A stretch of DNA of 44,182 nucleotides from the NCBI GenBank assembly GCA_038046185.1, contig JBBSWR010000144.1:1-44182 (forward strand), in the 5' to 3' direction. This document shows, piece after piece, positions 1,194-34,244 of this stretch. Numbering within the stretch: the stretch's first letter is position 1; the number at the start of each line of letters is the position of its first letter. A model generated the notes under the pieces. That model saw nothing but the letters and a program-made list of their open reading frames with translations, did no database searches and was not told where the DNA came from. This stretch comes from Nanobdellota archaeon. Lineage in GTDB: Archaea; Nanobdellota; Nanobdellia; Woesearchaeales; GW2011-AR4. The translations under genes and the position numbers were made by a program.

Positions 1194-1206
1194 CAAGCGG
1201 CGTAAA

Positions 1207-6731: not shown

Positions 6732-8417
6732 ATGAGCCGCACAAAAAAAATCTCAATTTTGTTTTTATTTTTGATATTTTTGCTGCAATCGGTAATCGCA
6801 GCTGAACCGGACAGGATTCTATCAAACTCAGAAGACTGGAGGGATGTTTATTCAGTAATACTTTACGGAAACTTAGTGGGCAAGCAAGCCAGCTTTTTAG
6901 TTAGCGATAGGCATGCAACCCTTATACTTAACCAAATACCAAAATACAGCCACATATGGGCAATTAGTTCAAAAAAAGTCCCTTATGTAGTTGGATACAA
7001 AAATCTTTTGGAAAGCAAGGGGTATACAGCAGAGGAATTTGCTTATGATAATGCAAATTTGGAGCTTGCAAAGAAGTTAGGGGAGATAACTAATTTCATA
7101 ATAATTGATGACTCTTATGGGTATAATGCGATTTCAGTTGCCCCTTATACAGTTACTGCAAAGTATTATGTATTATTTGCTGATAAAGATAATATCAAAG
7201 ATGTTGATAAATTTCTAAGTGGAAGGAAGGTAAACAAGATTTTGCTTTACGGGAACTTGGACAGAGAAGTTAAAAATACACTTTCTAAGTATAATCCTGA
7301 GATAATAAATAAAGAGGGCGACAGATTTCTTAATAACATAGAGATAGTAAAGAAGTATCAGGAGATAAAGCATTCTAAACAGGCAGTCCTAACAAATGGG
7401 GAGTTTATTGAGCATGAGATAATGTCCGGTGCAGAGCCGGTTATCTTTATTGGGACTAACAATGTTCCTGATGCTGTTAGAGATTATATAAAAAGCAGTG
7501 ATATTGAAGTTGGCGTATTAATAGGAAATGAGCTGGTTGGCACAGCAACTTTCATAAGAAGGCAAATCGGCATTAGCGTTTTCGTTAAATTTGCCCAAGG
7601 CGCAAGAGCGCCGCAGGGGGCAATTTCACAGGTCGAAGCATTAGACATGTTTTATCTGCCAACATCCAATTTGAATTTAGAGGTAGAATCTATAAAATAT
7701 AATAAAGCAACAAACAAGCTGGAAGTGACTGTTAAAAATACAGAAGCTCAGGCGGTTTATTTCATAGGAACTTACTCTTTGACCGCCTCCGACGGCGCAA
7801 AACAAACTATGGGAGATATAGGGGTAAATTTTATTGATGGAAAGGAGACAAAAACACTGACTTATGACGTAGAGACAATGCCTGATGGCGATATAGGCGT
7901 GGACATTTTTATTATTTACGGCGAATCAAAAGGCTCTCTTGAGAAGGAAATAAGAAAGAGTATGCAAGTGCAGACTGTAAGAGTTTTAGACGAATGCCAA
8001 GTTGAAATCAAAGAAACTATGTTCAACAAGGGAAATAAGCAATTCTATATTGCTGTTGAGAATACTGGGAAGGTTGACTGCTATGTTGATGCCGAAATTA
8101 TTGACATCCTGATTGCCGGAGAGAAATCAACTTTTGGGCTGGATAATCCGTCATTTTTAAACAGCGGCAGCAAAAAGAACTTGATAATAAAAGTTGATAA
8201 TTTGCAAGAAGAGGACTTGGCAGACAATGAAAAAATAAAGGTACGGGCTTATTATGGGGAAAGAGAGGGCACTTTAGTAAAAGTGATTGAGGGCACTTTC
8301 GAGCTGATAGTGAAGAGTATTGATTACTTATTCTATTCATTACTTTTAGTGATAATTTTGTTAGTCATTTTGATTATATGGAAAAGACGAAAAAGGAAGG
8401 AAGAAAAAAGCCATTAA
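6732..8417 (+). CDS. Large secreted protein with signal peptide and C-terminal TM anchor
   Basis: Starts 2 nt after the previous stop. Signal-like ISILFLFLIFLLQSVIAAEP. C-terminal helix LLLVIILLVILIIW is followed by KRRKRKEEK. The N-terminal half vaguely resembles cell-wall-binding repeat modules (unverified). Confidence 0.65.
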   Translation: MSRTKKISILFLFLIFLLQSVIAAEPDRILSNSEDWRDVYSVILYGNLVGKQASFLVSDRHATLILNQIPKYSHIWAISSKKVPYVVGYKNLLESKGYTAEEFAYDNANLELAKKLGEITNFIIIDDSYGYNAISVAPYTVTAKYYVLFADKDNIKDVDKFLSGRKVNKILLYGNLDREVKNTLSKYNPEIINKEGDRFLNNIEIVKKYQEIKHSKQAVLTNGEFIEHEIMSGAEPVIFIGTNNVPDAVRDYIKSSDIEVGVLIGNELVGTATFIRRQIGISVFVKFAQGARAPQGAISQVEALDMFYLPTSNLNLEVESIKYNKATNKLEVTVKNTEAQAVYFIGTYSLTASDGAKQTMGDIGVNFIDGKETKTLTYDVETMPDGDIGVDIFIIYGESKGSLEKEIRKSMQVQTVRVLDECQVEIKETMFNKGNKQFYIAVENTGKVDCYVDAEIIDILIAGEKSTFGLDNPSFLNSGSKKNLIIKVDNLQEEDLADNEKIKVRAYYGEREGTLVKVIEGTFELIVKSIDYLFYSLLLVIILLVILIIWKRRKRKEEKSH

Positions 8418-9011: not shown

Positions 9012-9662
9012 TTGGAAACAATAGATAATGTATATTCAACTAAAATGGAACTAGAATTGTTATTTTCAGACCAAAAGTGGAACATTCTAAAATGCCTTTC
9101 AGAGAATAAGTACAGCCCAATTCAGCTTGCTGAAAAACTTAATACAAGTACTGCTAATATAAGCCAGCAAATGAGGCTGCTGGAAGCGGCAAATCTTGTC
9201 AAAAAGGAAAAAATAAAAAATAGGGACAAAGGCAAGCCAAGAACTTTATTTTCCCTGACAGAAGATTATGCTTACTTGATTCCGGCAATGAATGGTTTTG
9301 CGGATAAGAAACTTCTAAAGGTGCAAGATCATCACAAAATTATTTTGAAAATCTGGTTTTTAGAAAATCCGGATTTGCACCCGCAGCTTGAGTACCTATG
9401 CTGGAAGATTGAGCCTTATCTTGCAAATATAGATGCTATTGCTGTTAATAAATCTTCCAAAATTGTAATTATAGTATCAAACAAGAGAGACGAAATCATG
9501 AAAATTGCTGAAAAAAATAAATCAATAAATGTGGAAGTTTTTTCGATAGAAGAAGCTGAAAGTTATTTGAAACACGGTAAAAAGCCCTTATTTTCGATTA
9601 TTGATTTGGCTATAATTCATGACCGCAATAAAATTTTTTCAAAGAAATTAGTGCCTGTATAA
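9012..9662 (+). CDS. ArsR/SmtB-family winged-HTH transcriptional regulator with C-terminal extension
   Basis: KWNILKCLSENKYSPIQLAEKLNTSTANISQQMRLLEAANLVKKEK..GKPRTLFSL is a typical ArsR HTH plus wing. Start is either the TTG at 9012 or the ATG at 9045. A BRE/TATA-like box lies at 8951-8968. Confidence 0.75.
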   Translation: METIDNVYSTKMELELLFSDQKWNILKCLSENKYSPIQLAEKLNTSTANISQQMRLLEAANLVKKEKIKNRDKGKPRTLFSLTEDYAYLIPAMNGFADKKLLKVQDHHKIILKIWFLENPDLHPQLEYLCWKIEPYLANIDAIAVNKSSKIVIIVSNKRDEIMKIAEKNKSINVEVFSIEEAESYLKHGKKPLFSIIDLAIIHDRNKIFSKKLVPV

Positions 9663-9803: not shown

Positions 9804-10550
9804 ATGAAAGTGTTAAGCGTAATTGTAGCGATAATTGGTTTGGTTTTACTAAGTTATACGGTATTTGCAGATCCGGTGGGACCTGGAACGGTTCAAGTAC
9901 AAAGTCCTGCTGACAGAAGAACAACAGGTATAGATGCAACAACAGGAATAGGAGTTCAGGCTCAAGCAGGCAACGTGACTGCATTGAACATCAACTCAAC
10001 AAGGCTGACAAGCAGGTGGCAGGGCTACTATGGAAATGTATCAGGGGTGATAACACTAGATGATGCAACTAATAATACATTATACAATTGGCAAATAGCA
10101 AGCCCTCGAGGTGAGATTTATGCAGTAAACCACACCACAACGCCTACATGGGCTAATGTTGAATGCTTTAACTTTACTGATGCCTCGCAAAACGTCACTT
10201 TGGGTGGGCTAGAGAGTTCTATAGGAGCAGCACAAACAGATAGAGACGGTGTGAATGAAACATTTAATCTTACTTACAGCGGTTCATTTAGTGCCGGCAG
10301 TAAAACTATATTAGCAGGAGATGGATGTCCAATAGCATCTTTGTATGTCAGCGATGCTTGGACTGGAACCAAATTCAACGAGACAATATTGTTCGAAAAT
10401 CAGTCAGCTGAAAGAGTGATATATGTAGCGTTGCTTGAGCAGGACCAAACCGGCTTTTCAGGAAGCAGTCTAGACTTTGAGATGTTAGTTGGTGAGAATG
10501 GTGATAGCGTACAGGCAACTAGCTATTACTTTTTCGTAGAGCTGACATAA
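9804..10550 (+). CDS. Secreted hypothetical protein (signal peptide, sequon-rich)
   Basis: GGAGGG lies 8 nt upstream of the ATG. N-terminus MKVLSVIVAIIGLVLLSYTVFADP. The gene is bracketed by identical 67-bp hairpin repeats. Confidence 0.65.
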   Translation: MKVLSVIVAIIGLVLLSYTVFADPVGPGTVQVQSPADRRTTGIDATTGIGVQAQAGNVTALNINSTRLTSRWQGYYGNVSGVITLDDATNNTLYNWQIASPRGEIYAVNHTTTPTWANVECFNFTDASQNVTLGGLESSIGAAQTDRDGVNETFNLTYSGSFSAGSKTILAGDGCPIASLYVSDAWTGTKFNETILFENQSAERVIYVALLEQDQTGFSGSSLDFEMLVGENGDSVQATSYYFFVELT

Positions 10551-10990: not shown

Positions 10991-11974
10991 ATGATAATAA
11001 AAATTAAAAAAAAAATCTTGCAACTTACAGCATATTTATTAGTTGGTATTCTGTTGGCAATCACACTTTTTTCAGGAGTTTCTTTGATAACAAACAGTGT
11101 GATGGGGCTTAATGTTACTAATCAAACTGTTATAGCAAGAGTTAACGTATCTAATACTGAGCCAACTTTATATGAGGTTAAAATTGACTCTCCTCTGGAT
11201 GCGCAAAGAAATATAGATCTTACCGCTAACACAGTAACAGCAGTAATATGCAATGGTTCGGTATTCGATATTAATGGTTTCCTGGATATTAAAAATGTAA
11301 CAGCTACACTTTATGACATTTCAGTTGCTTCAAATGCGCTTGATGATAATAATACCCATTACACAAACTCGACTTGCGGCAATTGCACTTCTATTCCCGG
11401 AACAAACAATCAAAACGCAAGCTGCTTGTGCCAATTTCCTGTTCAATATTATGCTAATTCGGCTAACTGGCAGTGCAATATGACAGTCAATGACAGCGGA
11501 GGATTATCAAGCAATAGGAACTCCAGTTTTTTTAACCTGAATGAAGTTGTGGGCATAAATGTTGAAAATCCTGTTCTAGATTATGGAAATATGTCTGTAT
11601 CGCAAACATCTAATTATATAAGGCAAAATATCACGAATGGGGGCAATATCCCAATAAATGTTACTCTAAGAGGTTATGGCGGAGATAATGAAAGCATCGG
11701 GCAGAACGTAACAATGATATGCGAATCAGGCACAAACATAACATTTGGCAATCAAAGATTTTATCCCGGCAATAACTTGGCATTTGGTGAAATGTATAAT
11801 CTTACAAACCAGACAAGGCAGATATTTAATTTAACAATACCCCAAAGAACAAATGACCGCAGTTTTGGAAATAGCAGCAACTCTTCATTTTGGAAACTTC
11901 AGGTGCCATTAGGCGCAAGCGGCGTCTGCAACGGCACAATAATCTTTGGGGCTATTGATGCGACTTTAACTTAA
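10991..11974 (+). CDS. Secreted/surface sequon-rich protein, paralog of the 1..1193 product
   Basis: N-terminal anchor LQLTAYLLVGILLAITLFSGV. Blocks shared with ORF 1..1193: DDNN.HYTN..C, YYAN...WQCN, VLDYGN, LTIPQRTNDRSFGNSSNSSFWKLQVP..GVCNGTIIFGAI. Confidence 0.7.
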   Translation: MIIKIKKKILQLTAYLLVGILLAITLFSGVSLITNSVMGLNVTNQTVIARVNVSNTEPTLYEVKIDSPLDAQRNIDLTANTVTAVICNGSVFDINGFLDIKNVTATLYDISVASNALDDNNTHYTNSTCGNCTSIPGTNNQNASCLCQFPVQYYANSANWQCNMTVNDSGGLSSNRNSSFFNLNEVVGINVENPVLDYGNMSVSQTSNYIRQNITNGGNIPINVTLRGYGGDNESIGQNVTMICESGTNITFGNQRFYPGNNLAFGEMYNLTNQTRQIFNLTIPQRTNDRSFGNSSNSSFWKLQVPLGASGVCNGTIIFGAIDATLT

Positions 11975-15069: not shown

Positions 15070-15240
15070 ATGAATGACATAGAGATACTTAACGTAAGAT
15101 TGCCATCTGAGATAGTTCAATGGCTTGATTCCTTAGTAGAGAAAGGAATATACAACAGCAGATCCGAGGCTATAAGGGAATTCTGTAGAGAACATATAGC
15201 ACAGTTTAAAGACAATACCGGAGTTGATAACAGTGCATGA
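15070..15240 (+). CDS. Ribbon-helix-helix (CopG/Arc-like) DNA-binding protein, 56 aa (below ORF-track cutoff)
   Basis: Hand translation: MNDIEILNVRLPSEIVQWLDSLVEKGIYNSRSEAIREFCREHIAQFKDNTGVDNSA. It shows the beta-strand (LNVRLP) plus two-helix pattern of RHH proteins. BRE/TATA lies at 15002-15017. Confidence 0.65.
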   Translation: MNDIEILNVRLPSEIVQWLDSLVEKGIYNSRSEAIREFCREHIAQFKDNTGVDNSA

Positions 15241-15244
15241 TGTC

Positions 15245-15520
15245 ATGGTCAGTGTTAGAATGCCTAAATCTTTAGTTTCTAGACTTAAGGAATTAGCTAA
15301 AACTCAACATTTCTTGGATTTAAGCGAAGAAGTGAGGGGCATTATAAGAAAAAAGTGGAGTTTCCACGCTAATCCTGAGCTTTTTGAGATAAAAAAATTG
15401 AGAGAAGGCATAGAACGGGAGATAAGGCAAAAAAGCGTCAAAAGAATTCATGAAGAGGTCTCTAAAGAGCTTGACAAGATTAAATCGCAATTAAAAAAGG
15501 GTGATTGGATAAATGAATAA
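15245..15520 (+). CDS. Ribbon-helix-helix DNA-binding protein with charged C-terminal helix
   Basis: MVSVRMPKSLVSRLKELAKTQHFLDLSEEVRGIIRKK fits the RHH pattern. The track starts it at a TTG at 15224. Its stop lies inside the ATGAATAA that starts the next gene. Confidence 0.6.
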   Translation: MVSVRMPKSLVSRLKELAKTQHFLDLSEEVRGIIRKKWSFHANPELFEIKKLREGIEREIRQKSVKRIHEEVSKELDKIKSQLKKGDWINE

Positions 15521-18500: not shown

Positions 18501-19751
18501 GAAGATATACTGTCTCAAATAAGTGAAATTATGTCGGAGATTGGCAGCTTAAATGCAGAAAACAAAGAAGCTGCAGAAGCGCTGCAATTAAAGAACAATT
18601 TAGATAAAGCAGTAATAGCCGTACAGAGGGCTAACAGAGACTTACACAGCCTACAATGGAGAAAACTAAATGACACCGAATTAGAGGAAGAAACAAAAAA
18701 TATCCTCAATAGAATAAAAATTTTGAAGGATACTACTCCAAAAACTATAAAAGTAATTGATAAAAATGAATTTGTTAAGTATCCCAACAAGGAGGATATA
18801 AATAATGCGCTTCAAATACTGGCTAATTCCACAAATGCCAAATTAAGCAAAAACAATTTGAACGACCTAGTGCAGCAAAACTTTAAGTTGCAGTCTTTGA
18901 TTAGTGTTACAACAAAAGCCAAAATAATCGACGTTGAGTACATATCTGGAAATAAAAATACAATAACCCTTATACAAAAAATAGTCAACTTTGATAAAGA
19001 CTTTAAAGATTTAGTCTATTTTGAAGTTATACCAAAGGGCATTGCAAAAAATTTAACCGAGCTTAAATTATTGTTTGATTATGAGGTTGTTGATAATGAC
19101 CCTGTTATTAAGATTGACCTATCAAAGATAAAAGATTATTCTTTCTACGTGGAAAAAAAAGTGAGCCTAGAGAGCACCGAGGAAATAAAATCTGTGTTGT
19201 TAAGCAAAAACTTGAAATCCGAAAGCGGAAACTTACTGACAGGATTTTCTGTATTTGACCAGATTCCGGGAAATTTAGTTAAAACATTGAATGCAAGATT
19301 AATTATCGAGTTTGCCGTTATGATAATCCTGCTGCTTGTGTTTTTGCATTACCAGTTTGGAAGCTCTGGTAAATTTAAGTACGCATTTAATGGGAAGGAA
19401 TTAAATGAAACCAAACAGCTGATAGATTCGGCCCTAGTTGAAGTTAATAATAATAATTATGAAAAATCTTCCTTGATATACAAAGAGGTTAATATTAAAT
19501 TTAATAATCTTGATAAAAAGAAAAAAGATATGATTAAGGATTCTGTTATAGAATTGATAAATAGAATTAATAGATTATACATTAATCAGCTGGCAGAAAA
19601 GGCAAATAACTGCATAAAGGCAAATAATAAGCAGGCGGCATTTGCAATTTATTCTCAAATACAATCTTTGTATAGGGTAATACCTAAGAATTACAAGGCT
19701 GAAGTTTCAAAGAAATGTTTGGAACTTTATAGTGCAATGAACTCAAATTAA
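15513..19751 (+). CDS. Giant (1412 aa) type-I-like surface protein: N-terminal anchor, sequon-rich ectodomain with PKD-like and carboxypeptidase-regulatory-like domains, C-terminal TM and cytoplasmic helical tail
   Basis: N-terminal TM LMFHIILLILILCFWLIFALAV. PKD-like stretch VSYKWDFQNDGVIDSTSDSQVFTYASNGTYTVNLTVSD. Cys knot QNGDETGVDCGGGCGTC. CarboxypepD_reg-like stretch VTVIVRDNSTSSAIQNAEIWL..GFYRLMVKKPGY. C-terminal TM LIIEFAVMIILLLVFLHY followed by a ~120-aa tail. Confidence 0.8.
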   Translation: MNKAGNKQSEKKLMFHIILLILILCFWLIFALAVKAYQNEKGIYLSIDNLELNQQDVIFDLDNVNSGLHSKNKTIFLNLKYGDDINYDKDNDGIEKINGVIDFVADAKFNWDVYEDKLCARWEIYSIEKNSLTAICYGSQKCCGFVSLDSTRENWSTPLYLTYGMHDASENNIISAQVIYVDYNLSRERPYSEIYYSRWSSLTARFEESIGSVKNISMEEALRSVDKIRRNNTQIKKIDLKDKYGNELRELSQGKNASMVFSVAHSKVNDNSTSRLSRQNVNNEIIVSLNDFNASNADWDSSKNIKIKTENIGLEDSLKQYGMDTKAIVSVQGVDDFISDKNYYGTVKFNISDVFNVVIYCPDDKIGSCRYAQECINGFKGVECYVKNLSSLIIYVPHFSSIILGLDNRTANLTIKSPENSSVLQSGENIYLNFTINETVNANYSLDAKPFINLGNEASFSGLLNGSINYGILENGAHNISINIRDIFGNKAIINYSFWVNDTAAPNVLLNITNNTAFSGTSGLISASFNSSEYSTLSYKINNNNFSNPIDLGANKYKIMNITFSGGVNNLTINASDFHNNGNLNYFSFNFTLFQQPSCSDALQNGDETGVDCGGGCGTCINFSVATDRESYNLTDNVFVTVIARANSTVNLTIIRQDLVAYRHTFIPVFSGAPVAETRIISNTSNAGNYTINATLYYLNITQYINRTFEILPPVASPIAVTIMPNATTIKEGNPVFFASSVSGNNSAVSYKWDFQNDGVIDSTSDSQVFTYASNGTYTVNLTVSDSKWNQTDLETIYVKKVYNVTVIVRDNSTSSAIQNAEIWLEDEIRNTTGSGTADYSNIAGFYRLMVKKPGYAQFSNKTEINGNSLLEVVLIEDDNLPPIIQLISPTDKSTISNGIISFVYRALDKSLLSCTLYTKMNSSEWKISGVDSNLQSNAENSFTISGLKNTTYEWKIGCIDAGSNSNYSEIYSFTVDASLIENQLSIDLNEEDKNSEDILSQISEIMSEIGSLNAENKEAAEALQLKNNLDKAVIAVQRANRDLHSLQWRKLNDTELEEETKNILNRIKILKDTTPKTIKVIDKNEFVKYPNKEDINNALQILANSTNAKLSKNNLNDLVQQNFKLQSLISVTTKAKIIDVEYISGNKNTITLIQKIVNFDKDFKDLVYFEVIPKGIAKNLTELKLLFDYEVVDNDPVIKIDLSKIKDYSFYVEKKVSLESTEEIKSVLLSKNLKSESGNLLTGFSVFDQIPGNLVKTLNARLIIEFAVMIILLLVFLHYQFGSSGKFKYAFNGKELNETKQLIDSALVEVNNNNYEKSSLIYKEVNIKFNNLDKKKKDMIKDSVIELINRINRLYINQLAEKANNCIKANNKQAAFAIYSQIQSLYRVIPKNYKAEVSKKCLELYSAMNSN

Positions 19752-19755
19752 TTAT

Positions 19756-22095
19756 ATGAAATCAATAAAAGAAGTGCAAAATAATAAATTAATAGAGCTC
19801 GTAGTAATAATATCCTTATTCTTTATACTCAGTATAGACCTCCATGCTTTCGCCCAAACCAGCGTTAAAATTGAGCCTGAGCAAATAACTAAAAGAGTAA
19901 AACTAGGAGATTTCGTTGAAGTTCCAATCAAAATAACAAATGACGGCACTACTCAATTATCCTTAAGATTTGGCATTGAAGGCGATTTGATTAAAGTTGC
20001 GGCATTAGATAAAAATGGCGCTGCTATAGAGCCTGGGGCTGCTGAGCAGATAAAGCTAACTGTATTCGGAGAAAATATAACCACGCTTACAGGGCATTTT
20101 ACTGTTTCAGGAACAATTGAAGAAAGAATACCAATTAACATAACTGTAACTAGCTTAGACACAATTCCTGTAGAAGCATTACTGATTGAAATAGAACCCA
20201 TAACCGAAAAAGCAAAAATAGGGGACATCTTTAAGTATAAGATAAGCCTGCAAAATCTCATAACCGACAGAACATATAATGTTACATTATCTTCAAGCAT
20301 AGACAGATTGGAAGACCAATCAACTTATAAATTTGAAAAATCATTTTTTACGGAAACGGATGATGTGCAGCTATCCACTGCTTTTTCCCTAGTGAAGGAA
20401 TTTGCCATGCCTGATTTTATCAGACCGGGAGAATATGTGATAAACGTAAAGGCAGAGTATCTTGGCTTGTCATCGTCATCCAGCAAACGCTTTAGGGTAG
20501 TAGAGCCAATTCTTGACTATGAGTTATTGGGCATACTGCCCATTAGATGGGCATTGTTCTCAGGAATATTTGTTATAACCGGATTATTATCCTTTTTTAT
20601 CTATAAGAAGAGGAAGGCTAAAAATAAGCGATATGTTGCAAAAGTTGAATATAGCCTGTTGCCCCAGCCAGGCCCAAGATCAGCGTATATAGGTATGATA
20701 CCGGAAACAAACAAAAAAACTTATTTTGACATAGACCAATTGCAGACGCATACACTAGTTGCCGGCTCCACAGGCGGCGGCAAGACAGTATCAGCTGAGG
20801 TTCTGGTCGAGGAAGCTTTAATTAAAGGAACGGCTGTGATAGTCTTTGATCCCACTGCCCAATGGACGGGCTTCTTAAGAAAGAATGCTGATAAAAGAAT
20901 GTTTGCCCTCTATCCAAAATTTGGCCTTAAGAAGACTGATGCAAGGGCTTTCAATGGAAATATAAGGCAGATTATGAATGCAAGGGAGATTATAGATATT
21001 AAAAAATTTATTAAGCCCGGGGAAATAAACATTTTTTCAGTGAGCAAATTAGATCCTGAAGATATTGATATACTTGTTGCAAATACCGTAAGGGAAGTAT
21101 TTCATGCAAACCTTCCTGAAAGCAGCCAGTTAAAACTTCTCATAATTTTTGATGAAGTTCACAGATTATTGCCAAAATTTGGCGGCTCAGGGCAAGGTTT
21201 CATACAGATAGAAAGAGCAGCCAGAGAATTCAGAAAGTGGGGAGTCGGCTTGATACTAATAAGCCAAGTTTTGACAGATTTTGTAGGAGAGACAAAAGCC
21301 AATATAAACACAGAAATACAAATGAGAACCAGAGATCAAGGAGACCTCGAGAGGATAAAGAACAAGTATGGCTCTTACATGCTTCAGTCATTGCTTAAAT
21401 CTGCAACCGGCACAGGCATGATGGAAAACGCAGCATATAATAAAGGCAATCCTTATTTCGTATCTTTTAAGCCGCTGCTGCACGAGCATGCGCGCTTAAG
21501 CGACGAGGAATTGGATAATTACAACAAATACAATGAAGTTATAGAAGATTTAGACTACCAGCTTGAGCAGCTTGAAAAATCTGGAGTGGATATATTTGAT
21601 CTAAAGCTCGAGGTTAAGATGGCCCTTGATAAGGTAAAGTCAGGGAGCTTCAATATGGTTAATATATATCTTGAAGGGCTTACTCCAAGGATAAAATCCA
21701 ATTGGGATAAATTAGGCAAACAGCCTGAAAAAAGGAGATTAAAACTGGTTACAGAATCAGAATTAAAAGAAGAGCTGGAACGAGCCAAAGAAGCGAGAAA
21801 AAAATTCGAAGATCATCAGAAATCGGCTCCTAAATCTGGTTTAGAGGAACATGGAGTTCTCACGCTAAAAAATGGAATTGTAATAGCAAAGAAAAAAGAA
21901 ATGTTAGACGCGCTTCAGGCAATAGACGATAAAACATTCATAGCTCATGTTAACGAGCAGAGAAATGATTTCAGTGATTGGCTGGCAAATATCGATAAGG
22001 AAGCAGCTGAAAAAATAAAGGCAATAAAGACAAGAAAAGAGATGATAGAGATTTTAAAAAAGCTTGAAGCGCAAAATCAGGCAATTCCAAGTTAA
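19756..22095 (+). CDS. Bitopic membrane protein: ectodomain - TM - cytoplasmic HerA/FtsK-like (DUF87-type) P-loop ATPase - C-terminal N-D-F-x-x-W domain
   Basis: Signal/anchor LIELVVIISLFFILSIDLHAFA. TM WALFSGIFVITGLLSFFIY followed by KKRKAKNKRY. Walker A VAGSTGGGKT. Walker B LLIIFDEVH. HerA-like AAREFRKWGVGLILISQ. C-terminus FIAHVNEQRNDFSDWLANI. Confidence 0.8.
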   Translation: MKSIKEVQNNKLIELVVIISLFFILSIDLHAFAQTSVKIEPEQITKRVKLGDFVEVPIKITNDGTTQLSLRFGIEGDLIKVAALDKNGAAIEPGAAEQIKLTVFGENITTLTGHFTVSGTIEERIPINITVTSLDTIPVEALLIEIEPITEKAKIGDIFKYKISLQNLITDRTYNVTLSSSIDRLEDQSTYKFEKSFFTETDDVQLSTAFSLVKEFAMPDFIRPGEYVINVKAEYLGLSSSSSKRFRVVEPILDYELLGILPIRWALFSGIFVITGLLSFFIYKKRKAKNKRYVAKVEYSLLPQPGPRSAYIGMIPETNKKTYFDIDQLQTHTLVAGSTGGGKTVSAEVLVEEALIKGTAVIVFDPTAQWTGFLRKNADKRMFALYPKFGLKKTDARAFNGNIRQIMNAREIIDIKKFIKPGEINIFSVSKLDPEDIDILVANTVREVFHANLPESSQLKLLIIFDEVHRLLPKFGGSGQGFIQIERAAREFRKWGVGLILISQVLTDFVGETKANINTEIQMRTRDQGDLERIKNKYGSYMLQSLLKSATGTGMMENAAYNKGNPYFVSFKPLLHEHARLSDEELDNYNKYNEVIEDLDYQLEQLEKSGVDIFDLKLEVKMALDKVKSGSFNMVNIYLEGLTPRIKSNWDKLGKQPEKRRLKLVTESELKEELERAKEARKKFEDHQKSAPKSGLEEHGVLTLKNGIVIAKKKEMLDALQAIDDKTFIAHVNEQRNDFSDWLANIDKEAAEKIKAIKTRKEMIEILKKLEAQNQAIPS

Positions 22096-22290: not shown

Positions 22291-22614
22291 ATGGATACTC
22301 AACAAGATTTTAGGTACATCCCGAAAAGGAAGCTATCAGAAGCGGAAAAACAAATAATAATGCTCAGAATAGAAAAACTTAAGCTGCATAGAGAAAAATC
22401 ACTTCTCATATTGAATAAAGGAATAATACTATTTTTTGTATTTTTGGCAGTTGCTGTTGTAGGTTTGGTAAACAAAATGGTTACTGTTATGCAGCTTAAT
22501 ATACTTGTTTTAACTGGATTTCTGGCTTTGATTGTGGGTGTTTTGCCTTATAGTTTTGCAACAAGAAAAGAAGAAAAAGAGCTGGAAAAAACTATAGACG
22601 AGCTGATAAACTAA
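22291..22614 (+). CDS. Small membrane protein (N-terminal charged helix + two TM helices)
   Basis: Two hydrophobic helices: GIILFFVFLAVAVVGLV and LNILVLTGFLALIVGVLPY. Its stop lies 2 nt before the first KaiC-like gene. Confidence 0.55.
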   Translation: MDTQQDFRYIPKRKLSEAEKQIIMLRIEKLKLHREKSLLILNKGIILFFVFLAVAVVGLVNKMVTVMQLNILVLTGFLALIVGVLPYSFATRKEEKELEKTIDELIN

Positions 22615-24842: not shown

Positions 24843-25221
24843 ATAAATCATAAAATCAGAAATTTTTACGTGCGTAAGTGGAAAGCATGGAGTGAACTCT
24901 GTTGTTTAGTCAAGAATTTTTCAGGTAATTTAATAATAAACGGAGTAATTTTCCTATTTATTCTATTGGGAATCGATAACACCCGGTTAGCATACCAGTA
25001 AAAAATGCTAAGTAATAATTGAGAAAATTAGCAAAAAAAGAATTAATAATCTATTGATTTTCTGGTTCATAACAAAAATGGAATGTGAGTCGTATTATAT
25101 ATATATATCAATTTAATCTTTACTAAACTTAAATAATTTTGTATTTAATTAATTATTTAATTGCATACTCAATATGTATTTATATGTAATTAATATACAT
25201 TTTTCTATACTAATTACAAAA

Positions 25222-25237
25222 ACGAAACATTTATATA
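25222..25237 (+). promoter_or_regulatory. BRE/TATA-like promoter box of locus copy 2
   Basis: acgaaacatttatata ends 32 bp upstream of the ATG at 25270, implying a short or absent leader. Confidence 0.55.
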
Positions 25238-25269
25238 TGATTTAATATGATTAAGTATGTAGTAATAAT

Positions 25270-25434
25270 ATGAAAGAACGAATTACCATAAACTTGGATA
25301 AAGAATTTCTTAATTGGCTAGACCAAAAAATAGCCGAAAAAGTGTTCGCAAACAGAAGCCATGGATTTGAATATTTAATCAAGAAAAAAATGCAGTTGGA
25401 AGATGAAAGAAAGACTAACAATTACTCTGGATAA
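25270..25434 (+). CDS. Ribbon-helix-helix protein, 54 aa (below ORF-track cutoff)
   Basis: Hand translation: MKERITINLDKEFLNWLDQKIAEKVFANRSHGFEYLIKKKMQLEDERKTNNYSG. BRE/TATA lies at 25222-25237. Confidence 0.55.
   Translation: MKERITINLDKEFLNWLDQKIAEKVFANRSHGFEYLIKKKMQLEDERKTNNYSG
25313..25374 (+). repeat. 62-nt near-identical segment (1 mismatch) repeated at 25446..25507; core of a 133-bp tandem duplication of the RHH gene
   Basis: attggctagaccaaaaaatagccgaaaaagtgttcgcaaacagaagccatgg[a/g]tttgaatat occurs in both copies at an offset of 133 bp. Confidence 0.9.
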
Positions 25435-25558
25435 GGAATTGCTCGATTGGCTAGACCAAAAAATAGCCGAAAAAGTGTTCGCAAACAGAAGCCATGGGTT
25501 TGAATATATGATTATGGAAAAGATTAGAGAGAAAACTAAGGAAGAGAAAAATGAATAG
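25403..25558 (+). CDS. Ribbon-helix-helix protein, 51 aa, tandem duplicate of 25270..25434
   Basis: Hand translation: MKERLTITLDKELLDWLDQKIAEKVFANRSHGFEYMIMEKIREKTKEEKNE. It starts inside the 3' end of the first copy in another frame. Its stop lies inside the ATGAATAG that starts the next gene. Confidence 0.55.
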   Translation: MKERLTITLDKELLDWLDQKIAEKVFANRSHGFEYMIMEKIREKTKEEKNE

Positions 25559-28500
25559 CAAGAAAAAAATCTTTGACTACAAATTTATGTACGTCATATT
25601 ACTAATCGTATTATTAGGTGGAGCTATTATTGGTTTGGTTATGGTTAAAAAATTTATAGGGTTTGCCGGCACTCAAATTCCTGCACAAGCGGGTTACATT
25701 ACTACTGTAGCAATAGATCATAGAGAAATAACCTCCTATTGGGCAGGTATTTTTGGCCTTGTTTTTTCACAGGAGGGATTCGATGAAACACAAACTATAG
25801 CTGCGACTTCTGGGGCAATTTCAGCAGAGACTTTTGTATTTGAGTGCATGGACCCAACAAAAGCCGTTAATGAAATGTATGCAAGCAATAATATCACAAT
25901 AAATTTCTCGAATGTTATTGCCGGAAATACTGATATGATTGACCGGGATTTGCTGAATTTAAGCAATAATACCAAAGAAAGAGCAAATAATACTTTTACT
26001 TATAATGAATCAATATTGCTTGGCACAACAAATATATCTGGCATTCCTTCTGTGTATACCAATGTTAATGATGCTCCAAACAATACGCTGTTTTTTACCG
26101 GTATACTTAATTCAAGCGGCAAGCTTGTTCTGGTCATCAAAGTTTTTGCTGCCTCCAAAAGAAGTTTTAAAGGTACACTTATTGACTATCAGGCACTGCT
26201 GCCTGTAAAAAATAATTCAGCAACATGGTATTTTTTTGCAGATCCAAATGACAACTGCCCAGCCGGCTTCGGTTCAGGACAAATCGGAGATTCAGTAATA
26301 AGTGGTTTTGTATTTGAATCAAATAGCACACTTCCAATTTCAGATGCAACAGTCAGCGCGGGCGGCAATGTTTCTCTAACAGATTCTAATGGGTTTTTCA
26401 ATTTCACGGCTCCTGGGGGGGTGACATACCATATAATAGCAATTAAGTCCGGATATGTTACCAATATAAGCGTAATAAATACGACAATTGGCGAAGAAAC
26501 AAAACAAAACATGACACTTGCGAAATTCTTTGGATTTTTGGGTGCAAACGCTACAATATCTGGCTACGTAAAAGACAACTCAACTAACGCTACAATTGCC
26601 AATGTTACTATTAGCATTGCCGGACTGACTGCACAATCAAATGCAACCGGAAACTATTCTATTTTGATACCAGAGGGAACGCATGTAATAGCTGCCGTTA
26701 AAAGCGGCTACAGCAATTTTGTCGGCAATTTTTCAATAAGGGACAGCCAAAATTTAAGCTTTATAATTAATATGACAGCTGCAATTAGTGCAGTGGCTCA
26801 AACCCAAAATGGAACACTGCTTAACAATGGAACTATACAAGGATTTGTAACAGACAACTCAACCAACCTTAGCCTGGCAAATGTTATTGTAACTGTAGCT
26901 GGAGTGTCAAACGCAACAAATAGCTCTGGATTTTATAACATAACAGCTTTGCAAGGCACAACCAATCTAGTTGCAACAAAAAGCGGTTATAATGCTTACG
27001 CAAGAGAAGTAGATATATTAGCAAATAACATAACGATACTGAATTTTAGCATGAGTCCTATTTCCGTGGCTGTAGGAGTAGGTAATGGTTCAGTAAAGGG
27101 ATTAGTAAAAACATCTTCAGGAACTTTGATTAGCGATGTTGCAGTAAGCGTTGCCGGAAAATCAAATTCAAGCAACTCCAGCGGCGGATACTTTTTAGGC
27201 CAAGTGTTAGCAGGAACTCATAATCTAGTTGCTACAAGATCTGGTTTCAATAACTATGTAGCTGTGATAAATGTCACAGAAAGTGCAACAACAGAGCATA
27301 ACATAACAATGATAACCACAACAGAGGCTGGCTTAGGCGCTGGAAGCGGCGCCGGTCAAGGCGCCGGTCAAGGCGCCGGTCAAGGCGCTGGAAGCGGCGC
27401 AGGCACAGGCATTCAGTCACAATTAGAGCAGCCTACACGTGTAGTTGATTACGAGATATCTGTCAAGAAAATATTGAGAAAATTGAAAGTAGGTAACTTT
27501 ATTGGTGTTCCTATAGATATTTCCAACTATAAAACACAATCAATGGACTTAAAGTTTTCAATAGAAGGAGACGTCAAGAAAATTGCAAGGATTGATAAGG
27601 AAAGACTTGTTATAGATGCTGGTTCCAGTGGGGAAGTTATGGTTACCTTACTTGGAAACGTTGAGCCCGGAGTATATGATGGTTTCCTTGCCATAACTGG
27701 CGATATAAACGAGCAAATTCCAATTTACGTATTAGTACTTGAAAAAGACAGGTTATCAGTTGAAGCTCTAGTTATAAAGATTTCTTCTCAGGACAAAAGG
27801 GTAGCAGCAGGCGACATATTCAAATATACAGTTGACTTGCAAAATTTATTGAGTGAAGAGAAATATAAAGTTGCATTATCTTACAGTTTGCAAGGCATTA
27901 ATAATAACAAGAGCACGTTTCTGGAAAAGGAAGAGATTGTGATGTATACTTCATTTTCTTTATTAAAAAGTTTCCAAGTTCCCAGCGATTTGCCTGTAGG
28001 AGATTATGCGTTGAAAGTAAAAGCGGATTTTCTTGATTTGACAGCAGAACAATCTACAATATTTACGGTAGTTGAACCAATCTACAAATACGCTTTATTC
28101 GGGATTATTCCCGCATGGATTTTGGCTGCTTTAATTCTTACACTTTCGCTAGGGACTTTTTCAACATTAGTTTACAAAAAAAGAAAAGAAGAAAAAAGAA
28201 GGTATCAGATAGAGTTAGATTATTCACAATTGCCGCAGCCAGGCCCAAGATCAGTATATATAGGGCATATCGCAGAAACGAGTAATAAAACCTATTTTGA
28301 CCTTGACACATTCCAAGTTCATACATTAGTGGCTGGCTCAAGCGGCTCCGGAAAAAGCCTGGCTGCACAGATTTTAGTGGAAGAAGCTTTGCTAAAGGGC
28401 GTGGCAGTAATAGTCTTTGATCCAACTGCCCAATGGACAGGATTTCTGAGAAAACTGGAAGATAAGAGATTGCTAAGCATGTACAAAGGATATGACCTAA

Positions 28501-29714
28501 GAAGGACAGATGCACGGGCATTCAATGGAAATGTGCGTCAAGTTACAAATGCGCGGGAATTAATAGAATTCAAGAAATTCATGAAACCGGGAGAAATAAA
28601 CATATTCGTAACTAATAAGCTTGAAATAAAGGACATAGAGTTATTTGTGGCAAATACAATAAGGGAGGTTTTCCATGCAAATCTGCCCGAAAGCCGAGAA
28701 TTAAAGTACTTGATGGTATATGACGGAATACACGCTTTATTGCCAAAATTTGGCGGCTCCGGCCAGGTTTTTGTGCAGATAGAAAGAGCAGCCAGAGAAT
28801 TCAGAAAGTGGGGAGTCGGCTTGGTATTGATAAGCCAGGTGCTAAGTGATTTCCCTCAAGAAGTACTTGCAAACATCAATACGGAGATAATGCTAAGAAC
28901 AAGGGATGAGGGCGACCTCAACAGGATTAAGGAGAAATATGGCGATAAGATACTGCAGTCAGTTGTCAAAGCTGCTGTAGGCACTGGAGTTATACAAAAC
29001 TCTTCCAACAACAAAGGTAAGCCGTATTTCGTGAGTTTTAGGCCGCCGATGCACAGCATTCAAAGTATAAGCGAAGAGGAATTAGAGAAATACAACAACT
29101 ATAATGAGATAATAGAAGATTTGAGCTACCAGCTTGAGCAATTAGAAAATGAAGGTATTGATATATTTGACTTAAAGCTGGAATTAAAGCTCTCGCAAGA
29201 TAAGGTAAAATCCGGCAATTTCAATATGGTCAATATATATTTAGACGGCCTAAAACCAAGGATAAAATCCCAGTGGGAAAAACTTGGAAAAAAACCCAAA
29301 AAAAGAGAAATAAAATATATATCGGAAGGGGAGTTGGAAGGGGAGTGGGAATTAGCAACGCAGGAAAGGAAGAAATACATAAGCAAAGATAAATTAGCAG
29401 AAGAGAGCAAAAACGGAGAGCAAAAAGAGGGTACTGAAATGGAAGACACAAGCTCTAAAGAAAAAAAAGAAAGCTTTGAAGCATCATCCAACAAAATGAT
29501 TGACCCTGATGATGACCAAAACAATAATTTGGAAATGTCGTTCGAGAAATTGTATATCCAAACAAAGAATCTGATTGCAAAAAATGAAAAAGAGAAAGCG
29601 GGCAACCTATACCACGAAATACAGAATATTTATAAGAGCGCGCCCAAGGAAATCAAATCAAAGATACTGGCGAAATGCATTGAAATACAAAAAAATTTAA
29701 GTAATGTAAAATAA
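25551..29714 (+). CDS. 1387-aa fusion protein: N-terminal anchor + four carboxypeptidase-regulatory-like repeats + Gly/Ala/Gln linker + ectodomain-TM-HerA/FtsK-like ATPase module + acidic region + helical tail
   Basis: TM1 FMYVILLIVLLGGAIIGLVMV. Four ~90-aa repeats (ISGFVFESNS.., ISGYVKDNST.., IQGFVTDNST.., VKGLVKTSSG..). Linker GLGAGSGAGQGAGQGAGQGAGSGAGTG. From ~aa 625 it is collinear with the 779-aa protein. Walker A VAGSSGSGKS. Walker B region YLMVYDGIH. AAREFRKWGVGLVLISQ. Confidence 0.8.
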   Translation: MNSKKKIFDYKFMYVILLIVLLGGAIIGLVMVKKFIGFAGTQIPAQAGYITTVAIDHREITSYWAGIFGLVFSQEGFDETQTIAATSGAISAETFVFECMDPTKAVNEMYASNNITINFSNVIAGNTDMIDRDLLNLSNNTKERANNTFTYNESILLGTTNISGIPSVYTNVNDAPNNTLFFTGILNSSGKLVLVIKVFAASKRSFKGTLIDYQALLPVKNNSATWYFFADPNDNCPAGFGSGQIGDSVISGFVFESNSTLPISDATVSAGGNVSLTDSNGFFNFTAPGGVTYHIIAIKSGYVTNISVINTTIGEETKQNMTLAKFFGFLGANATISGYVKDNSTNATIANVTISIAGLTAQSNATGNYSILIPEGTHVIAAVKSGYSNFVGNFSIRDSQNLSFIINMTAAISAVAQTQNGTLLNNGTIQGFVTDNSTNLSLANVIVTVAGVSNATNSSGFYNITALQGTTNLVATKSGYNAYAREVDILANNITILNFSMSPISVAVGVGNGSVKGLVKTSSGTLISDVAVSVAGKSNSSNSSGGYFLGQVLAGTHNLVATRSGFNNYVAVINVTESATTEHNITMITTTEAGLGAGSGAGQGAGQGAGQGAGSGAGTGIQSQLEQPTRVVDYEISVKKILRKLKVGNFIGVPIDISNYKTQSMDLKFSIEGDVKKIARIDKERLVIDAGSSGEVMVTLLGNVEPGVYDGFLAITGDINEQIPIYVLVLEKDRLSVEALVIKISSQDKRVAAGDIFKYTVDLQNLLSEEKYKVALSYSLQGINNNKSTFLEKEEIVMYTSFSLLKSFQVPSDLPVGDYALKVKADFLDLTAEQSTIFTVVEPIYKYALFGIIPAWILAALILTLSLGTFSTLVYKKRKEEKRRYQIELDYSQLPQPGPRSVYIGHIAETSNKTYFDLDTFQVHTLVAGSSGSGKSLAAQILVEEALLKGVAVIVFDPTAQWTGFLRKLEDKRLLSMYKGYDLRRTDARAFNGNVRQVTNARELIEFKKFMKPGEINIFVTNKLEIKDIELFVANTIREVFHANLPESRELKYLMVYDGIHALLPKFGGSGQVFVQIERAAREFRKWGVGLVLISQVLSDFPQEVLANINTEIMLRTRDEGDLNRIKEKYGDKILQSVVKAAVGTGVIQNSSNNKGKPYFVSFRPPMHSIQSISEEELEKYNNYNEIIEDLSYQLEQLENEGIDIFDLKLELKLSQDKVKSGNFNMVNIYLDGLKPRIKSQWEKLGKKPKKREIKYISEGELEGEWELATQERKKYISKDKLAEESKNGEQKEGTEMEDTSSKEKKESFEASSNKMIDPDDDQNNNLEMSFEKLYIQTKNLIAKNEKEKAGNLYHEIQNIYKSAPKEIKSKILAKCIEIQKNLSNVK
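27348..27383 (+). repeat. Three perfect tandem 12-bp repeats (ggcgccggtcaa) encoding (GAGQ)3 inside CDS 25551..29714
   Basis: Read directly. They are flanked on both sides by ggcgctggaagcggcgc. It is a GC-rich island in an AT-rich gene. Confidence 0.9.
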
Positions 29715-29715
29715 A

Positions 29716-29961
29716 ATGGCCGAAGGCATAGATTTAACTGTAGAAAATTTAAAACAGGAGTTAAATCAAATCAAGGATAAAATTAGCCAATGCAGGAAAA
29801 AGGGAATGGATACTAAAATCGCAGAGCTTAAGATTATGGCCATACCCTCAAAAATCAAGATGCTTGAAGTAACAAAAGATTTCAAGGATGTGCAAAAAAT
29901 AGCTAAACTTTTAAATGATGCTATAGCTGAAATAGACAATGTAGAAAAAGGAGGATTATAG
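29716..29961 (+). CDS. Small coiled-coil protein
   Basis: Starts 1 nt after the stop of the fusion gene. The 81 aa are heptad-like and K/E/I-rich. Confidence 0.5.
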   Translation: MAEGIDLTVENLKQELNQIKDKISQCRKKGMDTKIAELKIMAIPSKIKMLEVTKDFKDVQKIAKLLNDAIAEIDNVEKGGL

Positions 29962-33082: not shown

Positions 33083-33128
33083 TGTTCTTCTAAAACTTTA
33101 AATACTCGCCCAAAAAATATTATTTTAT

Positions 33129-33212
33129 GCCACTGTCGCATAACCCGGTAGTGCGGCGGTCTCGAAAACCGCTTTCCGCAAGGATTTCCCGGTTCAAATC
33201 CGGGCGGTGGCG
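33129..33212 (+). tRNA. tRNA-Ser (anticodon CGA), type II, no intron, no encoded CCA
   Basis: Hand fold: acceptor GCCACTG/CGGTGGC (one G-U), D arm GCAT-AACCCGGTA-GTGC, anticodon arm GCGGT-CTCGAAA-ACCGC, 15-nt variable arm, T arm CCCGG-TTCAAAT-CCGGG, discriminator G, then a T-run. Confidence 0.8.
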
Positions 33213-33227
33213 TTTTTCACAAAAGGG

Positions 33228-34244
33228 GTGTTTAATATATCAAATAAAAAATACAATTTTTGTTATTTGGTTTTCCCAATCTTATTATTGATAGCGTGCA
33301 GCCAGAGTTTAACAGAAGAAGAATACCAGGATAGCTCAATAACAGGGCAGGCAATTGCAACGGAAATTCTAAGGGCATGCAAATATCCAAATGATAAATT
33401 CTGCGAGGAAAGATGCTGCCAAACCGAAGAAAGCTGCGGGGACGGCGGCTTTGCATATATGGAATGTGACCTGAAAACTGGAGAATGGATTGATAAAACT
33501 TATTCGGATTCTGAATGCGCTTCCGAATGTGAAACGGCAAAACCGACAGAAGGAACTAAAAATAAAGCGGCAAAAGAAAATAAAACTGTACAATCATGCC
33601 CGGAAGGGTGGAAATGCCTGAACAAATTCGAGAGAATCTACAGGAATGCTGATTGCTCATTCGGAGAAACAGAAAAGTGCAGCACTGGATGCGTGAATGA
33701 CACTTGTGCCCAGCTCTGCAGTCCAAACACTTTCAGCTGCAGAAAGGATGTGCTGAGAAAATGTGATGAGAATGCCAACGACTGGATTTATTTTACGACT
33801 TGCGATTATGGGTGCGAAAACGGGCAATGCCTGAATTCTTCGCTGCAAACAAATCAAACTCAAAATACAACACAGCCACAAAATGTATGCGGCAGTACTT
33901 GTTTTTCAATAACAAACTTCCATTACGATCCCGAAGGAAATGAATGCCAGGCTGCTTTTTTGAATGGTGAATATGTGACATTCAGGAATAATTGCGACTA
34001 CGCATGTGATTTAACCGAATGGATTATAAGTGATGACAAAGATCACACTTATGTGTTCCCTTCATTTACTATAGGCGTTCAAGAAGAGTTTAGCTTATAC
34101 AGCGGCTCAGGCACAGATTCAGCATCTGAATTATACTGGAACAGCCCTTTTTATCCTTGCAAAGCAATATGGAATAATAATGGAGACACATTGTATCTTA
34201 AAAACCAAAATAGGGAATTGATATTCTCCCAAAACTATACATAA
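33228..34244 (+). CDS. Cysteine-rich lipoprotein with C-terminal lamin-tail-domain (LTD)-like module
   Basis: The track ORF start (33207) overlaps the tRNA, so I prefer the GTG at 33228. Lipobox-like LLLIACS. The C-terminus NGEYVTFRNN..DLTEWIISDDKDHTYVFPSFTI..WNNNGDTLYLKNQNRELI matches the LTD pattern as I recall it. Confidence 0.55.
   Translation: MFNISNKKYNFCYLVFPILLLIACSQSLTEEEYQDSSITGQAIATEILRACKYPNDKFCEERCCQTEESCGDGGFAYMECDLKTGEWIDKTYSDSECASECETAKPTEGTKNKAAKENKTVQSCPEGWKCLNKFERIYRNADCSFGETEKCSTGCVNDTCAQLCSPNTFSCRKDVLRKCDENANDWIYFTTCDYGCENGQCLNSSLQTNQTQNTTQPQNVCGSTCFSITNFHYDPEGNECQAAFLNGEYVTFRNNCDYACDLTEWIISDDKDHTYVFPSFTIGVQEEFSLYSGSGTDSASELYWNSPFYPCKAIWNNNGDTLYLKNQNRELIFSQNYT

Follow-up and report, generated by a model that had tools for sequence, protein, structure and literature searches.

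We analysed a 44,182-bp stretch of DNA from a Nanobdellota archaeon (GenBank assembly GCA_038046185.1, contig JBBSWR010000144.1, positions 1 to 44,182; hereafter the window), in which a predicted operon encodes a large type-I surface protein and two membrane-anchored ATPases of the HerA clade, a short one of 779 amino acids (aa) and a long one of 1387 aa. The GC content of the window is ~36%, the region is flanked by housekeeping genes (inorganic pyrophosphatase, glutamyl-tRNA synthetase, glycosyltransferases and tRNA-Ser), and the nearest database relatives are metagenome-assembled genomes (MAGs) labelled Woesearchaeota or Nanoarchaeota. A preliminary description had divided the locus into two copies of one gene cluster, with surface protein and ATPase as separate genes in the first copy and fused in the second; we find instead one operon with a duplicated ATPase gene. 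For comparison we used 83 related Woesearchaeota loci (L-numbered), onto whose open reading frames (ORFs) the window homologs were mapped. The genes of the operon and the parts of their products are as follows.

15070..15240, plus strand: ribbon-helix-helix (RHH)-like protein of 56 aa at the operon head; the same gene on the sibling contig L084 has a weak RHH_1 match
15224..15520, plus strand: 'sm', a small conserved protein of ~90 aa and the first conserved gene of the operon; homologs at 47–52% identity
15513..19751, plus strand: BIG, a 1412-aa type-I surface protein with an N-terminal anchor, a PKD domain (Pfam) and a transmembrane (TM) segment at residues 1261–1285
19368–19748, plus strand: cytoplasmic tail of BIG with 'module B' (jackhmmer), residues 1290–1412
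19756..22095, plus strand: short ATPase paralog, 779 aa (Pfam DUF87, AlphaFold2 model, Foldseek)
25551..29714, plus strand: long ATPase paralog, 1387 aa, one uninterrupted ORF of 1387 codons; orthologs at 58–75% identity have the same architecture
25647..26285, plus strand: N-dom, the all-beta extracellular domain of the long ATPase, residues 33–245 (phmmer, AlphaFold2)
26295..27320, plus strand: four CarboxypepD_reg-like repeats, residues ~249–590 (Pfam PF13620, 105.9 bits against a cut-off of 32.3)
27321..27410, plus strand: Gly-rich (GxGx)n linker, residues 591–620, peptide TEAGLGAGSGAGQGAGQGAGQGAGSGAGTG (TEAGLGAG...GAGTG)
27453..29420, plus strand: core common with the short paralog (ectodomains 635–845, TM segment 849–874, ATPase 895–1165, then helices)
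29436..29711, plus strand: C-terminal 'module B' tail of the long ATPase, common to the cytoplasmic tail of BIG (BLASTP)
29716..29961, plus strand: c81, an 81-aa helical protein and conserved downstream partner, homologous to the N-terminal halves of a 153-aa protein in L004 and a 199-aa protein in L001
30083..31168, plus strand: CC361, a 361-aa coiled-coil protein, 40–63% identity in L001–L004

The short ATPase is made up of a signal region (residues 1–35), two beta-sandwich ectodomains (37–132 and 142–249), a TM segment (~257–290, or 263–290 in the AlphaFold2 model), a HerA-like ATPase domain (~303–571, or 309–571 in the model), three long helices (583–690) and a small helical C-terminal domain (695–779; window 21838–22092), which is DUF5752-like and is here called module A. 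In Foldseek comparisons of the model (pLDDT 78.8) the ectodomains resembled tandem immunoglobulin/fibronectin type III-like domains and the ATPase resembled HerA (4d2i). Residues 635–1286 of the long protein align by BLASTP with residues 38–694 of the short protein at 55% identity and 74% positives (743 bits), and because this level of identity extends over ~650 aa, the two ATPase cores are, on sequence grounds, paralogs. The long protein had been described as collinear with the entire 779-aa protein; this stands for residues 38–694, and the peptide pairs quoted for it do occur in both translations, but residues 1–37 (the signal region) and 695–779 of the short protein are not matched by anything in the corresponding places of the long one.

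Ahead of the core, the long protein carries N-dom, the four repeats and the linker. N-dom is all-beta in its AlphaFold2 model (pLDDT 88.1), and no fold relative was found for it in the PDB, where the best match was cohesin (E 0.04, probability 0.10). When the ORFs of the fetched loci were searched with phmmer, 82 of the 89 N-dom matches fell in long ATPases, at the N-terminus; a homolog search with the N-terminal 250 aa alone returned 2 short fragments and nothing more. The presence of four carboxypeptidase-regulatory-like repeats within the N-terminal ~590 aa, as previously described, is borne out by the Pfam match. An N-terminal hydrophobic anchor is present in both ATPases, as is a further TM segment with a Lys/Arg-rich stretch behind it. 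N-glycosylation sequons in the long protein number 40 in the predicted outside part versus 3 inside (4.9 versus 0.6 per 100 aa); for BIG the corresponding counts are 52 and 1 (4.2 versus 0.8 per 100 aa). Given the hydrophobic segments, the sequon distribution and the AlphaFold2 model, which together argue for an outward topology, the N-terminal module of the long ATPase is a surface module, predicted to be extracellular and glycosylated.

The two paralogs differ at the nucleotide site. Both carry a Walker A motif of the HerA-FtsK superfamily form GxxGxGK[ST], GSTGGGKT in the short protein (nt 20764–20787) and GSSGSGKS in the long one (nt 28335–28358). The Walker B motif of the superfamily (hhhhDE) is present in the short protein as LLIIFDEVHR (nt 21136–21165), while the long protein has a degenerate YLMVYDGIHA (nt 28707–28736), with Gly1059 in place of the catalytic Glu and Ala1062 in place of an invariant Arg; ten orthologs of the long protein have DGIHS. 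GSTGGGKT and DEVHR are kept in all 22 short forms, and DEVHR is also retained by the long forms of operons with a single ATPase. The Walker B Glu is lost from the long form in 10 of 14 assemblies with both paralogs versus 2 of 52 assemblies judged to be long-only (Fisher p 2.7e-7), and in one of these 2 (L005) a short copy is present, truncated where the contig ends. We defined 84 conserved columns as those at least 93% conserved in the other 163 family members; the 18 sequences of the degenerate group retain 75 of them, and systematic changes are found in 4 alone (T339S, E467G/S, R470S/T/N/A and G481V), all around the nucleotide site. The Walker B glutamate is the catalytic base in ASCE ATPases, and the long paralog, having lost it, is therefore predicted to bind but not to hydrolyse ATP. 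Judged from the sequences, degeneration has been complementary, with catalysis retained in the short paralog and the arm in the long one.

The surroundings of these ATPases are conserved. The commonest arrangement in the 83 loci is sm, BIG, long ATPase, an optional 81-aa-type protein and CC361. A BIG homolog lies immediately 5′ of an ATPase in 65 loci (a long one in 47, a short one in 18), and in 56 the long ATPase is followed by CC361, with or without c81 between them. CC361 is the most widely conserved partner of the ATPase. RHH genes stand at the operon head in L001 and L003 also, and homologs of sm, for which no Pfam family was found, lie immediately 5′ of BIG in most loci, among them L001, L002 and L003 (47–52% identity). 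A CC361 profile compared with Pfam and the PDB found no relative, only coiled-coil noise; a weak match to PspA/IM30 (E 0.0014) was not taken as evidence. BIG, c81 and CC361 are single-copy, that is, they were not duplicated alongside the ATPase. By jackhmmer, BIG has module B in its tail in nearly all loci; the module also turned up in 9 small downstream proteins and, within the two-paralog lineage, in 16 long ATPases. Module A, with which the short form ends, occurs twice in other long forms and begins several downstream proteins. Because modules A and B are shuffled among them in this way, which is fusion-type evidence, BIG, the ATPase and the downstream proteins are predicted to interact on the cytoplasmic side.

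The history of the two copies was approached with a neighbour-joining distance tree of 181 cores (628 columns, 100 bootstraps, midpoint root). Homolog lengths are bimodal, ~770 and ~1250–1350 aa. In the tree, bootstrap support is 100% for the short clade, 100% for the long forms from the same genomes and 96% for both combined; this joint clade sits within a 94% clade of otherwise mostly long forms, and the giant members described below fall across the midpoint root from it. Since the short forms are thus sister to the long forms of the same genomes and nested among long forms, the tree favours loss of the N-terminal module in the short copy, and suggests duplication followed by this loss as the simplest history. 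Multiple long copies also occur: a tandem pair of 1416 and 1421 aa in L038 and, within 20 kb of L080, three genes whose products measure 1738, 1418 and 1623 aa.

We propose the following account, which as a whole we consider probable. The operon, of which the window holds one copy, is conserved across Woesearchaeota and comprises the RHH protein, sm, BIG, a membrane-anchored HerA-type ATPase, a small helical protein and a coiled-coil protein. In most genomes its one ATPase is the long form, built from the N-terminus of signal anchor, N-dom, CarboxypepD_reg repeats, Gly-rich hinge, two Ig-like ectodomains, TM helix, cytoplasmic HerA-like ATPase and helical tail. For the lineage of the window, one Woesearchaeota subclade, the sequence data point to a duplication of the ATPase gene, after which the copy beside BIG (779 aa) shed the ~600-aa N-terminal surface module with its catalytic site left intact, and the downstream copy (1387 aa) kept and lengthened the surface module and lost the Walker B Glu and the nearby invariant Arg, the rest of its fold remaining conserved. 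The two paralogs would act together, probably in one membrane ring, in which the short subunit would hydrolyse ATP and the long subunit would bind ATP without hydrolysis and carry the glycosylated outward arm. The unduplicated BIG, 81-aa and coiled-coil proteins would be common to both paralogs, and the complex would act as an ATP-driven apparatus of the cell surface. Its nearest relatives suggest, by analogy, that it would be a translocase of a polymer (DNA or protein) at the cell–cell contact of a probably symbiotic archaeon.

Several observations weigh against this account. Walker B is intact in the long copy of four two-paralog assemblies (L001, L034, L038 and L036), so its loss is not obligatory, and in at least seven assemblies (e.g. 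L009 and L034) the paralogs lie on different contigs, so that co-transcription is not required. The deeper backbone of the tree is weakly supported (8–15%), and the tree is distance-based and midpoint-rooted. The long-only status of assemblies was judged from incomplete MAGs and from the best 80 loci listed, and no conserved polytopic channel protein was found in the operon across the 83 loci.

The first two of these points would also fit a reading, to us rather unlikely, in which each ATPase would belong to a complex of its own, the long one either binding nucleotide as a scaffold or sensor with no need of hydrolysis or relying on some other catalytic residue. The ancestral partners beside the two copies differ as well, BIG standing with the short copy and c81 and CC361 with the long one, and in the window the paralogs are separated by four inserted genes, specific to the lineage, and a 708-bp gap.

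22291..22614, plus strand: 107-aa protein with two TM segments, which follows the short ATPase in L005–L009
22617–23294, 23269–24015 and 24081–24842, plus strand: three tandem KaiC-like ATPase genes (PF06745)

The KaiC-like trio matches PF06745 at E 5e-58, 1e-58 and 6e-49 (196.5, 198.6 and 167 bits against a cut-off of 26.6) and follows the short ATPase in the nearest relatives, L005–L009, too; KaiC-like genes near the operon were also seen in several long-only loci (L059, L071 and L083). The gap (24843–25550), in front of the long ATPase gene, is AT-rich, with short AT-rich tandem repeats at 25134–25259, and probably holds a separate promoter. Against independent complexes, BIG, c81 and CC361 have stayed single-copy although all of them accompany the ancestral single ATPase, and loss of the Glu is tightly tied to the presence of an intact paralog. 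Moreover, the 75 conserved columns that persist in the degenerate copies fit a preserved assembly surface.

The polarity could also be the reverse, with an ancestral short form to which N-dom, the repeats and the linker were fused to give the long form. An unrooted tree alone cannot exclude a root on the short branch, other short members (771–842 aa) exist elsewhere in the family, and N-dom also occurs as a free-standing family that could have been captured. A free-standing member is found in the window itself, in a trio of genes upstream of the operon.

9012–9662: ArsR/Lrs14-like helix-turn-helix (HTH) regulator, placed here as a member of the same trio as the 248-aa ORF
9804..10550, plus strand: secreted 248-aa homolog of N-dom
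10991–11974: secreted 327-aa protein, likewise placed as a member of this trio

The 248-aa protein is 29% identical to N-dom (E 1e-11), and the HTH/248-aa/327-aa trio recurs near the operon in L002, L012, L014, L017, L053 and L060. The homology of the 248-aa protein to N-dom of the long ATPase hints at unanchored subunits that might bind to the arm. An ancestral short form nevertheless appears improbable to us: every genome in which a short-clade gene was found also holds a long form of the sister clade, and none of the 52 long-only assemblies showed a short copy, even though a short form would outscore a long one against the query used. Short and same-genome long forms group at 96% inside the long-form radiation, and a root on the short branch would require many independent losses.

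The preliminary description had regarded the locus as a Rosetta-stone fusion, the N-terminal module of the 1387-aa protein being the fused equivalent of the 1412-aa protein. Both are large surface proteins with predicted glycosylation, encoded beside paralogous ATPases, and the C-terminal part of the 1387-aa protein does have a homolog in a separate gene, that of the 779-aa protein. The N-terminal part has no such relation to the 1412-aa gene. The two proteins have one significant similarity, a ~50-aa C-terminal tail (residues 1333–1379, BLASTP E 4e-6), and it lies at the end of the 1387-aa protein opposite to the N-terminal module; the N-terminal 590 aa show sub-threshold similarity to the 1412-aa protein at most (E 0.04–0.11). 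The claim that the repeat type is also present in the 1412-aa protein survives in weak form, as a single CarboxypepD_reg-like stretch at residues 805–862 (E 0.06, or E 2e-5 against the L001 ortholog), and falls short as a Pfam match (14.1 bits, below the cut-off of 32.3). Nor are split and fused states alternatives across genomes, as had been supposed: the 47 loci with BIG directly in front of a long ATPase carry both, and with a separate BIG upstream of an ATPase that is already long, the N-terminal module cannot be a fused BIG. The free-standing relative of N-dom is, moreover, the 248-aa ORF and not BIG. We thus judge a fusion of the 1412-aa protein to be very unlikely; split and fused forms inside a single genome should not be interpreted as a Rosetta stone until other genomes have been compared. 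The broader inference that surface protein and ATPase act as one physical unit can be kept on other grounds, since N-terminal extensions of 0 to ~5400 aa are found on the same core, the adjacency of BIG and ATPase is conserved, and the cytoplasmic tail module is shared by the two; it is the fusion with the 1412-aa protein that drops out as its evidence.

There remains the concern, raised in the preliminary description, that the GC-rich repeat at 27330–27410 is an assembly artefact that falsely joins two genes and hides a stop or start. The perfect 12-bp repeats described there are present: Tandem Repeats Finder reports 3.4 copies of a period of 12 at 27348–27388 with 100% match. A TEAGLGAG...GTG linker, 32–42 aa long and located at residues ~585–610, recurs in ten orthologs (58–75% identity) whose assemblies come independently from ENA, JGI and NCBI. 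In all 40 long homologs examined, a low-complexity linker rich in Gly and Pro occupies this junction and connects the repeats to the first ectodomain. Although perfect repeats in a 35% GC genome are a plausible site for a mis-join and the exact 1387-aa product has no record in the assembly index, the chance of an artefact is negligible, as the frame is open across the join, the architecture and linker recur in the ten orthologs and the linker in at least 40 further long forms, the long ATPases of related loci carry N-dom at their N-terminus, and the repeat unit is four codons, so that miscounted repeats can neither create nor hide a frame break. We take the join in the 1387-aa protein to be real. 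A sibling contig (L084, Hainich groundwater sample) carries the 779-aa protein and stops before the long gene.

Elsewhere in the window, three consecutive ORFs of ~380–400 aa with TTG starts occupy 57–3493 and an ORF of 561 aa occupies 6732–8417; no Pfam family was found in any of them, nor any similarity among them. The ORF at 33207–34244 encodes a Cys-rich secreted protein with a Lamin Tail Domain, and since the GTG listed as its start falls within the 3′ end of tRNA-Ser(CGA) (33128–33213), the true start is probably further downstream.

Beyond the 83 loci, an exhaustive HMMER search with the 779-aa protein gave 395 representative clusters at E <1e-30, some of whose members are labelled Aenigmatarchaeota. 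The same core lies at the C-terminus of proteins of ~700 to 6253 aa. Giants of 2000–6253 aa (P0173, P0206, P0201, P0248 and others) have adhesin-like N-terminal parts, and the three examined contain Kelch, Laminin_G_3, CARDB, NPCBM_assoc and Filamin domains. Downstream of one giant, of 3381 aa and with archaeal surroundings, comes a homolog of CC361 (L085 18232–19380; 35% identity, E 3e-47). From these comparisons and the structural models, the window ATPases are membrane-anchored members of the HerA clade, the long one with a predicted glycosylated extracellular arm, and their conserved operon also encodes a type-I surface protein and coiled-coil partners. No account of the operon or of this architecture was found in the full-text literature, or by a term search of one Nanobdellota genome preprint.

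Assignment to the HerA clade follows from Pfam DUF87 (PF01935; 41.1 and 40.2 bits against a cut-off of 23.2), with HerA_C also above its cut-off, and from HerA 4d2i as the best PDB match by sequence (E 1e-7), with a Foldseek match to 4d2i_B (E 6e-8, TMt 0.41). The named NCBIfam equivalogs (HerA, TraD, TraC, CedD and TraB) all score far below their cut-offs. For HerA the scores are 42.5 (NF040937) and 34.6 bits against 800 and 970: the RecA-like ASCE core with Walker A and, in the short paralog, an intact Walker B is common to both, but in place of the HAS-barrel N-domain of HerA the window ATPases carry a signal anchor, then a large part outside the cell and a single TM segment, which in the AlphaFold2 model is a helix ~20 residues before the ATPase fold. 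No NurA gene was found among the neighbours scanned with Pfam.

In the crenarchaeal Ced DNA import system, CedB and CedD are paralogous membrane-anchored HerA-clade ATPases that are both needed for one transport process and for which a mixed assembly has been proposed (PMC11868833); they offer a precedent for joint action of two such paralogs. The window pair resembles them as two co-occurring paralogous ATPases of this type, and CedD is the best NCBIfam match of the long protein (E 4.6e-11), at 42.1 bits against a cut-off of 600; the window operon, however, has no CedA-like polytopic channel or pilin genes, the Ced proteins lack these ectodomains, and one of the window paralogs is catalytically degenerate. 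FtsK/SpoIIIE, Streptomyces TraB and the type IV coupling proteins (TraD, VirD4, TrwB and DotL) belong to the same superfamily and are hexameric pumps with an N-terminal TM tether. To TraD, TraB, TrwB_AAD_bind, FtsK_SpoIIIE and IcmO there are weak matches centred on the P-loop (~45–60 residues), which do not extend to full length in the coupling proteins (TraD 36.8 bits against 366; TrwB_AAD_bind profile positions 12–56 of 387). These families lack a large extracellular module, and no relaxase or type IV secretion system genes lie near the window operon. Paralogous rings with catalytically dead subunits are known from the non-catalytic subunits of F1/V1 and from the degenerate ATPase domains of EccC in the type VII secretion system. 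There, as in the window pair, duplication was followed by loss of Walker B residues with retention of nucleotide binding and assembly surfaces; in the window pair the loss is paired with loss of the extracellular module in the other copy, and a mixed ring is a proposal made here. PADLOC returned generic HerA and mad8 P-loop matches, and a role in defence was rejected in view of the extracellular topology and the chromosomal housekeeping context.

Because the nearest characterised relatives (HerA, CedB/CedD, TraD, TraB and FtsK) move DNA or protein, we infer a transport-type function, in which the window ATPases would be the motor of an ATP-driven surface apparatus of DPANN archaea. We further speculate, and hold this only tentatively since it seems to us unlikely to prove right in full, that the core and CC361 define a hitherto undescribed DPANN-wide class of ATP-driven surface organelles whose adhesin-like arms, of 0 to >5000 aa, are built into the motor subunit itself, and that in the lineage of the window a mixed ring of catalytic 'bare' and dead 'armed' subunits moves DNA or protein across the contact with the host. 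If true, archaea would possess a functional analogue of Ced or of the type IV coupling systems that does without a dedicated channel protein.

The presumed lifestyle of DPANN archaea is attachment to host cells, and the means by which they hold on and exchange material are largely unexplained. As the present comparisons show, surface proteins across Woesearchaeota physically incorporate a HerA-type motor ATPase. The conserved ATPase with its coiled-coil partner and, usually, a type-I surface protein would thus be a testable candidate for an energised attachment or transfer apparatus, and the complementary degeneration of the paralog pair predicts a mixed ring and shows which subunit to mutate or purify.

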